NCBI RefSeq assembly: GCF_003991155.1
Contig: NZ_CP031293.1
Origin: Escherichia coli
Lineage (GTDB): Bacteria; Pseudomonadota; Gammaproteobacteria; Enterobacterales; Enterobacteriaceae
Length of the DNA: 64,000 nt
Direction: 5' to 3' (one strand)
Position numbers: made by a program. Positions 14,067 through 17,000 of this stretch are shown piece by piece; the first letter of the stretch is position 1, and every line of letters begins with the position of its first letter.

Positions 14067-17000
14067 GCGGCTGGTAACAGTCCGTGGCACGGTAAACTCC
14101 ACCCGGAGCAAGGCCAAATAGGGGTTCATAAGGTACGGCCCGTACTGAACCCGGGTAGGCTGCTTGAGCCAGTGAGCGATTGCTGGCCTAGATGAATGAC
14201 TGTCCACGACAGAACCCGGCTTATCGGTCAGTTTCACCTGTTTTACGTAAAAACCCGCTTCGGCGGGTTTTTGCTTTTGGAGCATAGTGTAAGATGAATA
14301 AATATCTACGGTATTAATAATAGACTTTGTAAGAAATTATTAAGTCTATATTGCATTTAAAAGGTCGTAATCATACGTATAGTCCTCTCTGGTAAAATAT
14401 TGCTTCTCTGAGTTATAAGCTTCATATGTGTTATATTTTACGACCTCAAAGCAATTGTCAGGAGAATTTTCGTCTTTCTCTAGTGTATTATCTGAAAGGA
14501 ATTCCTCTGAGCTAGAATCCTCTATGTTTAAATCTGTATTGTAATTAATTTTTGGATCGATAAGATAAGCATTTTCTTTGACGCTTTCATAATCTTTAAT
14601 GATTATATCGATGTAATAATCTATTTTTTCTGATGAGAATCCTTTCATCTCTGGTAATTTAATTCTGTTCAAGTAATTGTTAATTTTCGATGAGCTTTTA
14701 TATATTTCTTTTGTTAATTCATTTTCTAATTGATCTGTTAGAGTTGCTCTTGGTATAGATTCTATAATTGCAAGTCTCATGATTTTTAATTGTTCTTCGG
14801 TAATATCTCCAAGCGCATTTAAACAACTTTCGACAAGCTTAATTTTTTCTTCAGAATACATATCGTTAATGCTTGTTATAACAGGCGTTATTTTTAGTAA
14901 ATAATCCCATGAGATTGTGGCGTTTTGTTTTGAACTAACGAAATTTACCTGAAACATGTTGGCATTAGTAAAATCTGTGTCATCCAATTTAAAAGGATTT
15001 AAAATTGTATTGGCCATATGTTTATCTGTAAAATCATAAAGTTCTAAATCGACATTCCGTAAGTCCAGAGAGGATAGATCAACTATACCTCCACTCCCAC
15101 AACTAAAGATTACGTTCAACCTCCTGATTTCATTGTAAATGTCTTTCAATGGGCAATTAACATTGATATTGCCTGTGGATATTTCCTGGTTTTTTAACGG
15201 TTCATTAATTGTAAGTTCACAGGTATTGTCTGATCGTTGAATAATTCGGGCGTTATAACCAAAAAAATCCAGACGAAGAGACGAATCATTATAAAGAATT
15301 ACATTTTGTAAGTACGCTAATTCTTTTTGAAAATCACCAGTGATAATGCATTTCCCACCTGGTTGTAACGCGTTAAGTAAAGTGACCATTTCAATAGAGG
15401 TCTGTTTTAGTTTTTCTATACCTGGTGCTAGTGCTTCGAGGTTATTAACTATGGGGCTTTCAGGAAGGTCATTCATTTTTCGACGGGCTAAATCACTACT
15501 AATATTATTACCAATTGATGAAACAGGGGACATTATTTTATCCTTTATAAATAATCAATAAAAATCATTATTAAAATGATCGGGTGAAAAAAAGAGAATT
15601 TGCCAACAATCTGAAGGAATGGAGGTTTTATTAAAGTACGTAGGGGGGGTTAAGATGGCTTCTTTTCGGGTGAATTTTGCACAATACTTAGAAATCGTCT
15701 CCTTAATACATTCCAGCTCTTTTTTATTGACGGCTGAGCAAATACATTGTTCACCAAAAGGTGCAAAAGTGCCTACATCTAATGTTTGTATGATATAATC
15801 GTCATGTTCTCCTGTAGAAATATCTATGATGAATGGACTCATATTTTCCGGTTGGATTCGGATCATGACAGAAGGAATATCGCCTTGATAGAAATTCAAT
15901 GCAGTAATTGCAGATAATACTCTCCGCAGTTCATTACTTATACTGTATATTTTATTAACGTCATTGGTGGAGACAATTTCTGCAAACTTTCTTTTTACCG
16001 TCCAATAATCAATATTTCTGTTGTGATTGTTAACCACTGCGTGCATTGGCGGGATTGAAGGGTGAAAAATATGTGCAATTGGGAAGCCTTTCATTGATGC
16101 CTGCCTTGTCATCATGACAAACAATAATAGATGCTTATTTTCCTCGCACGGCACTTTCGCACTATCAAAAAACGCTCATTTACCCGGCATTACAGTAAAC
16201 GAAGCAACATTCTGTGGCCTACGCCGATCAAAAGCTCTGTGAAAATTCCCCTTGTTGTCTTTGGCTGACCTTATCGCGGCGACCAGCAATTATTCGTTTT
16301 GTGATCCTCAACACAAAATGCTATTCGTCGCCTATGAGGGGAGAGGAATTTATGGAAAACGATTGCATTCACAAAATGACGTCCTGTCAGAAGAGAAAAA
16401 GTTGACGTTAATCAATTGTTCGAGATGATCAATACCTGTATTCGAAATTTTAAAATATTGATAAAATAAATGTTTGTTCTCCAACAAATAGCGTGAAAAA
16501 ATGTGACGTGCCGCATTATTTATCGCTGAAAATGGTTTATTTATAATAAAATTTGAGAACTTGCTCATTAAATTTAACTCAAATTTTGCCTGGTAATTAT
16601 CCGGTAATTGCTTGAAATATGGCCTCAACCCCTTTTTTGTATTAACCACATAACGAATGATGTTATCGCCATAAAATATGGTTATCCCCGTCATTTTTTT
16701 TGACAAAAATCAGGGTTTATGCTGATTTTTATACTTTAACTTATTGATATATAAAGATATTTAATTGGAATAACGATACCCTGGAAAGTATTGAAAGTTA
16801 ATTTGTGAGTGGTCGCACATATCCTGTTCATTTCATTTTGATACACTTCATGCCGTCAATGAGGTAATTAACGTAGGTCGTTATGAGCACTATTCTTCTT
16901 CCGAAAACGCAGCACCTGGTAGTCTTTCAGGAAGTCATTAGAAGTGGCTCTATCGGCTCGGCTGCAAAAGAATTAGGGTTAACTCAACCGGCCGTCAGTA

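Follow-up and report, generated by a model that had tools for sequence, protein, structure and literature searches.

The tdcR locus of Escherichia coli: a 72-codon open reading frame lacking a coding signature within the conserved control region of the tdc operon

Introduction

The tdcR locus of Escherichia coli, divergent from tdcA, was examined in a 64,000-nucleotide (nt) stretch of contig NZ_CP031293.1 (RefSeq assembly GCF_003991155.1), hereafter the window. The feature is the known E. coli tdcR locus, and the gene is already known: its counterpart in K-12 (b3119, NP_417589.4; family NF008507, 'transcriptional activator TdcR') is the same locus, with no difference in kind. 'TdcR' has been listed for 35 years as an E. 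coli transcription factor, and regulatory databases give it as a DNA-binding activator despite the lack of a domain, homologue or coding signature; the label 'DNA-binding transcriptional activator' is not backed here by a recognisable domain or a confident fold. TdcR is said to be a trans-activator of tdcABCDEFG, on the strength of work by Schweizer and Datta in 1989 and by Hagewood et al. in 1994. According to the abstract of the latter, the transcription start of tdcR was reportedly mapped and its translation start established by mutation, and the 72-amino-acid (aa) annotation presumably goes back to that study.

Two described types of system come close to this locus. In systems of the bgl/flhDC type, a catabolic operon has an extended upstream control region with CRP, IHF and H-NS and is activated by insertion of the element IS5. 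The tdc spacer resembles them in its AT-richness, in the listed H-NS, in its CRP sites and in recurrent adaptive insertions of IS5, but its FNR-like box and distal CRP-like site are putative, having been recognised by sequence only. The other type comprises bacterial de novo or orphan small open reading frames (ORFs) that emerge from non-coding DNA, also called proto-genes (for example PMC11101190). Like them, tdcR is restricted to one genus and has homologous outgroup DNA that is non-coding, and it shares with them a ratio of nonsynonymous to synonymous change (omega) of ~1, a missing Shine–Dalgarno (SD) sequence, an atypical codon composition and frequent knock-out alleles. Unlike de novo ORFs from neutral sequence, it has a published regulatory phenotype and sits in conserved, functional regulatory DNA.

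Compared across species, tdcR is an Escherichia-only ORF within a ~0.55-kb AT-rich region between rnpB and tdcA that is made up of short conserved blocks with constrained spacing. We suggest that tdcR may well be a young, unconstrained but translated 72-aa ORF inside this conserved tdc control region. If it is translated, the best supported product is the 72-codon frame from the ATG at 16568, and the 46-codon extension upstream of it is, in E. coli, a frame open by happenstance over conserved tdc regulatory DNA. The protein itself appears to be dispensable in nature.

Conservation across Escherichia points to the annotated start

The ORF listing returned the 118-codon frame described in the initial annotation, with starts that give 118 aa (TTG at codon 1, TTG1; up177), 114 aa (ATG at codon 5, ATG5; window 16694, up189) or 72 aa (ATG at codon 47, ATG47; up315, K-12 3267380), where 'up' counts nt upstream of the tdcA ATG (up1 is window 16882, and window = 16883 − up). 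Further in-frame starts are a GTG at codon 20 (GTG20, 99 aa) and a TTG at codon 27 (92 aa), and the stop codon lies at up531–533. The 72-aa form, whose frame we call the core, is the one annotated by RefSeq and its Prokaryotic Genome Annotation Pipeline (PGAP) and in K-12, and the NCBIfam model NF008507, of 72 positions, matches residues 47–118 over its full length (174.2 bits, with a cut-off of 100). The window carries a non-K-12 allele, in which 69 of the 72 core residues are identical to K-12 and three amino acids differ. The layout of tdcA and tdcR is the same in the window, in K-12 and in strain 2016C-3878; a 651-nt query (window 16250–16900) was 100% identical to the latter and 95–99% identical to most of the 5,392 complete genomes that it matched.

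The AT-richness reported for the region is real (G+C of 0.30 in the core, 0.33 in the extension and 0.35 in the 728-nt spacer between yhaB and tdcA), and so is the impression that no start is favoured by an SD sequence. Pairing with the anti-SD sequence amounted to 0 kcal/mol at TTG1, ATG5 and GTG20 and to −2.2 kcal/mol at ATG47 (GAG, spacing 8), against −5.4 to −6.5 kcal/mol at the neighbouring tdcB, tdcC and yhaC, so that none of the starts giving 118, 114, 99 or 72 aa has a recognisable ribosome-binding site. At the start giving 92 aa, a run of GGGG directly abuts the codon, which makes the spacing unworkable. The initiation region is least structured at ATG47, with −3.7 kcal/mol compared with −8.7 to −9.3 kcal/mol at the upstream starts.

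For comparison, tdcA loci were collected from 64 species-level genomes and the DNA upstream of tdcA was aligned, with Escherichia represented by eight lineages that include E. coli, its closest clade L004 and five others (E. whittamii, E1V33, two further GTDB species and E. albertii). TTG1 is a TTG in E. coli only, and reads TTA in L004 and the five other lineages; ATG5 is present in E. coli and L004 only and is lost in those five. The extension is likewise open in E. coli and L004 only: in the five other lineages, indels at up188 (+1) and up244 (−1) break it, and a frame read from the homologous columns meets a stop within 0–22 codons. ATG47 is an ATG in seven of the eight lineages, six of which have a downstream ORF of 72 or 78 codons. 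The extension is also broken in one E. coli strain, HH194M, by the deletion of 1 nt, which destroys the long frames and leaves the 72-aa frame intact. Since ATG47 alone is shared across Escherichia, while TTG1, ATG5 and the extension are lost in sister lineages, conservation picks the annotated start, which we take to be probably the correct one, conditional on translation. The start had been called ambiguous, and a single sequence indeed cannot choose; the proposed comparison of candidate starts, once run on the Escherichia lineages, left ATG47 as the only one common to the genus.

The 72-codon frame shows no protein-level constraint

Whether tdcR is protein-coding at all had been considered uncertain, and a codon-substitution analysis had been recommended. 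Run on the core of the eight Escherichia lineages, it gave minimum numbers of substitutions of 36/38/36 at the three codon positions. Omega by the Nei–Gojobori method (NG86) was 0.45–1.1 in frame, compared with 0.27–1.2 in the two control frames (+1 and +2), and the third-position share of 0.33 corresponds to a hand-estimated omega of ~1, with a lower bound near 0.6. In tdcA, the control, omega was 0.007–0.03 and differences were distributed 3/1/62 by codon position. Among twelve E. coli alleles, polymorphisms in the core fell 5/5/2 by position. Base composition gave the same picture, as G is not enriched at position 1 of the core (0.14/0.11/0.15), with 0.27/0.11/0.10 in yhaC, 0.23/0.12/0.12 in yhaB and 0.39/0.19/0.15 in tdcB, and a position-1 range of 0.23–0.39 over yhaB, yhaC, tdcA and tdcB. 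The doubt about coding is borne out and strengthened by this lack of protein-level constraint, by the restriction of the ORF to one genus and by a nonsense allele at a frequency of about 10% (see Discussion).

As the initial annotation had noted, no domain is recognisable: the Pfam search gave no match above threshold, the best being BESS (E = 0.023). AlphaFold2 (AF2) predicted no confident fold (mean predicted local distance difference test score, pLDDT, 39.8; predicted template modelling score, pTM, 0.26), although the shallow alignment of 11 sequences limits this test. A DNA-binding domain was thus found neither by Pfam nor by AF2 on that alignment.

Two signals that might have spoken for coding were rejected. 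The core has gained fewer stop codons in frame 0 than random placement predicts (1 observed, 7.7 expected), but an already closed control frame gave a like deficit (1 observed, 9.2 expected); the random-placement null is therefore wrong, and the stop-deficit test was dropped. The absence of indels from the core was set aside as well, as spacing is equally fixed in genera that lack the ORF.

Homologous DNA in other genera lacks the ORF

Searched against 5.8 billion and, separately, 1.84 billion sequences, the protein had no homologue outside Escherichia and Shigella. Three distant protein matches proved to be leucine-rich-repeat or low-complexity matches rather than homologues, and another, of 117 aa, is an artefact: it is TdcR read from DNA with an apparent A-to-G conversion, probably from the assembly of a chemically converted sequencing library.

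At the DNA level, the spacer between rnpB and tdcA can be aligned in Citrobacter, Salmonella and Kluyvera (67–72% identity, E of 1e-22 to 1e-57), genera from which Escherichia is separated by a synonymous divergence (dS) in tdcA of >1. All 18 outgroup genomes have a stop within 0–41 codons of the ATG47 column, and six of them have an ATG in that column. Translated matches to Citrobacter and Salmonella were considered as a conserved protein and rejected, their frames being broken and the similarity lying in DNA blocks. The locus therefore combines a genus-restricted ORF with homologous non-coding outgroup DNA at the same position, as is found for orphans of the de novo type, and because genera that have no ORF there conserve the region too, we read tdcR as a young small ORF of this type.

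Conserved regulatory DNA in the spacer and under the extension

The features of the region are collected in Table 1. In the multi-genus alignment, conserved blocks occupy up57–88, 171–224, 258–282, 304–338, 374–390, 503–517 and 559–590. The pattern is the one expected of cis-regulatory DNA: short blocks, half-sites that do not vary, spacers that do, and distances kept from genus to genus. The core shows 83–87% identity in four of the sister lineages and 73% in E. albertii, and its flanks are less conserved (58–67% at up101–176 and 35–49% at up598–640); the rate of the core is ~0.3–0.7 of tdcA dS.

Table 1. Coordinates of features in the tdcR–tdcA region of the window
Feature	Position	Strand	Remarks
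Long open frame, 118 codons	16350..16706	-	TTG start at 16706, TAA stop at 16352-16350 (ORF listing)
tdcR, annotated form, 72 codons	16350..16568	-	ATG at 16568; RefSeq/PGAP and K-12
Upstream extension, 46 codons (118- and 114-aa forms)	16569..16706	-	Coding sequence not conserved
tdcA, LysR-type regulator gene, divergent from tdcR	16883..17821	+	Control for normal coding evolution
FNR-like box TTGAC-AAAA-ATCAG	16700..16713		8/10 match to TTGAT-N4-ATCAA; TTG1 inside the box
Element TATTTTATGGCGATAAC, codons 10-15 of the long frame	16662..16678	-	Similar to a -10 element, oriented towards tdcR
CRP site TGTGAgtggtcGCACA	16804..16819	+	~70 bp before the tdcA ATG; one of the blocks conserved in the multi-genus alignment
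Distal CRP-like site TGTGA-TCCTCA-ACACA	16300..16315		~35 nt beyond the tdcR stop codon

The FNR-like box occupies a fixed position in 56 of the 61 tdcA-bearing species of Enterobacteriaceae, with 8–9 of 10 matches to the consensus. The element TATTTTATGGCGATAAC is invariant in the eight Escherichia lineages and near-invariant in 60/61 species, where (G)GATAAC-N-TATTTTATGGCGATAAC sits 195–200 nt from the tdcA ATG and is preceded by CTGAy-N4-rTCAA. From the centre of the box to the TATTTT hexamer there are 28.5 nt in the window, and this spacing (28 nt) is kept in 54/61 species. Such a geometry could be that of a class-II promoter facing tdcR, or that of a far-upstream site of the tdcA promoter. 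Residues 1–15 of the long frame, and the DNA at up170–222, match even Raoultella, Lelliottia and Leclercia in tblastn and blastn searches; translated searches give the 'N-terminus' an appearance of conservation between genera because conserved regulatory DNA underlies the first ~16 codons.

The promoter-proximal CRP site was found in 60/61 species, and, following the literature, we assign it to the tdc promoter. The distal CRP-like site, by motif match, agrees with CRP-type half-sites at 9 of 10 positions, and in 15 aligned genomes its half-sites are invariant and its spacer variable. It lies at up565–569 in 34/61 species, ~500 bp from the proximal site, and this constancy of position indicates that spacing is constrained over ~500 bp regardless of the ORF.

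A structured RNA was considered and rejected: the Rfam search matched no family other than rnpB, RNAalifold predicted 11 pairs with no covariation, and the fold z-score was −0.77. On the tdcR strand, a simple scan for promoters and terminators came up empty. In published data, H-NS is listed in the spacer between tdcA and tdcR (PMC3946193), repression of tdc by H-NS is cited (PMC3212961), and selection in the mouse gut has repeatedly favoured IS5 insertions in the same spacer (PMC7518454, PMC7064181).

Published evidence on expression

Genomic SELEX (systematic evolution of ligands by exponential enrichment) of RNA polymerase (RpoD holoenzyme) placed a promoter facing tdcR, TTTAAA-16-TATAAA, at up128–155 of K-12 (PMC3946193), and tdcR mRNA has been measured by quantitative reverse-transcription PCR (PMC12143686). 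As to translation, in vitro initiation-site ribosome profiling (INRI-seq) lists an out-of-frame ATT for tdcR, with no in vivo signal from retapamulin ribosome profiling (Ribo-RET), in Table S3 of PMC9825163. This ATT is K-12 position 3267477 (1-based, the supplementary coordinates being 0-based), at about window 16471, and opens a 19-codon frame in AU-rich sequence. The supplements of the TRAINSPOTTER N-terminomics paper, of the acid-stress ribosome-profiling paper and of the Cappable-seq transcription-start paper do not contain tdcR.

Discussion

If tdcR is the young, translated ORF that we suggest, a divergent transcript would start in the tdcA–tdcR spacer, and ATG47, which has no SD sequence and lies in AU-rich, weakly structured RNA, would permit low-level initiation; the product would then raise tdcABCDEFG expression in trans, as the genetics of 1989 and 1994 is said to indicate. 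Several observations weigh against this. The claim that tdcR makes a protein is drawn solely from that published genetics. Within Escherichia, one lineage that keeps ATG47 is interrupted by a nonsense codon at position 51 of the core, which leaves an ORF of 50 codons, and codon 47 reads ATA in E. albertii. In E. coli, a TCA>TAA allele at codon 25 of the 72-aa frame (window codon 16494–16496) closes it, and 558 of 5,363 complete genomes (~10%) contain the exact 63-mer with this TAA; the allele is the cause of the 'internal stop' for which PGAP calls tdcR a pseudogene in three sampled genomes, all with tdcA annotated intact. Other frameshifted alleles exist, one of them a cluster of 110 members. 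First-order Markov simulations of the 728-nt spacer, in any of the six frames, gave 72 or more consecutive codons free of stops with P ~0.57 and 119 or more with P ~0.04; the 118-codon frame stands out only slightly, and one of 72 codons is expected by chance. Both the ATG47 block (TTAAATTTAATG) and the C-terminal RTSFCECNRFP, which is invariant, coincide with stretches of DNA that genera lacking the ORF conserve as well. No sequence test separates the 72-codon frame from conserved non-coding DNA, and the one initiation record found for tdcR, in Table S3 of PMC9825163, is the out-of-frame ATT seen in vitro.

Most of these points can be turned into a case for tdcR not being protein-coding, that is, for a chance ORF in the AT-rich, conserved cis-regulatory DNA of the tdc operon, a possibility that we regard as real though less than probable. 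It accounts for the missing codon periodicity in substitutions and composition, for an omega no different from that of the off-frames, for an ORF length within reach of chance, and for the lack of an SD sequence, a fold and homologues, and it sits well with the loss of the ATG in E. albertii and the commonness of the nonsense allele. The conserved blocks persist in genera without the ORF, with spacing fixed within 2 nt over ~500 bp, and both the H-NS in the spacer and the IS5 insertions selected in the mouse gut suit this reading. The trans effect of cloned tdcR DNA would then be due to titration of a silencer or other DNA-binding protein such as H-NS, to a divergent transcript that is not translated, or to the act of divergent transcription as such. 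For H-NS, however, which is abundant, plasmid-borne titration is a weak mechanism; no conserved RNA structure is present; ATG47 is kept in 7/8 Escherichia lineages, compared with 6/18 outgroup genomes; and the 1994 genetics, in which the start was reportedly fixed by mutation, implies a translated, functional product. A related and somewhat more doubtful proposal is that TdcR may be no functional protein, with the conserved function residing in the DNA and the ORF being incidental or at most a proto-gene. The FNR-like box and the −10-like element would in that case drive anaerobic divergent transcription, and the distal CRP site would join the FNR-like module, at fixed spacing across the Enterobacteriaceae.

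Two further readings fare worse. That a long form, of 114 aa from ATG5 or 118 aa from TTG1, is the real E. coli product seems highly improbable. Almost every E. coli sampled has its frame intact, the 119-codon stop-free run goes marginally beyond chance, gene callers often choose 114 aa (one cluster has 2,338 members), and ATG5 is preceded by a run of eight A, A-rich leaders being able to promote initiation (PMC9825163). Nevertheless, frameshifts, stops and the lost ATG remove this form from other Escherichia species, the natural frameshift in the extension is tolerated in E. coli, the upstream starts lack an SD sequence and have more structured initiation regions, and the K-12 curators chose 72 aa, the protein record standing at version 4. 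TTG1 lies within the conserved FNR-like box, and codons 6–16 correspond to a DNA element conserved in ~60 species; if the box and the −10-like element were the tdcR promoter, both TTG1 and ATG5 would lie upstream of the transcription start. An old protein gene of the common ancestor of Escherichia, Citrobacter and Salmonella, now a pseudogene elsewhere and decaying in Escherichia, is also very unlikely. A single frame does show translated similarity to Citrobacter over ~115 codons (44% identity, E = 3e-19), and some Citrobacter genomes have open frames of 86–120 codons in the homologous stretch. With tdcA dS >1 between genera, however, a neutral pseudogene should be unalignable, and the persisting short blocks, invariant half-sites and variable spacers are the signature of DNA elements; besides, no outgroup keeps the frame, the databases searched hold no protein homologue, and the intact copies in Escherichia also lack protein-level constraint.

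The tdc operon matters for gut colonisation and for serine use by pathogenic E. coli. Should the ORF be incidental, the regulatory network of E. coli would contain one wrong node and tdc control would need another explanation, resting on the conserved upstream DNA, including a possible direct input from FNR. If tdcR is instead translated and active, it would be a rare bacterial functional small gene born from conserved regulatory DNA. Because a natural knock-out allele is carried by ~10% of sequenced strains, tdcR is easy to test.

Other observations at the locus

Two E. coli strains differ at tdcA. In strain YPE10, IS1 copies stand in place of tdcA and the 5' part of tdcR, with a fragment of a gene for a pyridoxal-phosphate (PLP)-dependent enzyme between them, and the annotation of isolate NRZ105019 gives tdcA as a partial pseudogene without its N-terminus and tdcR as intact.

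Beyond tdcR, the window contains yhaB (15555–16154) and yhaC (14346–15533). The mechanical ORF of yhaB has 199 aa and begins at a GTG without an SD sequence, whereas RefSeq gives 179 aa (540 nt); YhaC has only weak, sub-threshold Pfam matches, to pentapeptide-repeat and DivIVA/GpsB-like families. The stretch holding both genes (14346–16154, 32–36% G+C) has no nucleotide match in sister Escherichia (L004–L008 and L015). The distance from the end of rnpB to the tdcA ATG is 765–1,118 bp in sister Escherichia species and 2,643 bp in the window, and E. albertii retains a yhaB-like fragment at the protein level.

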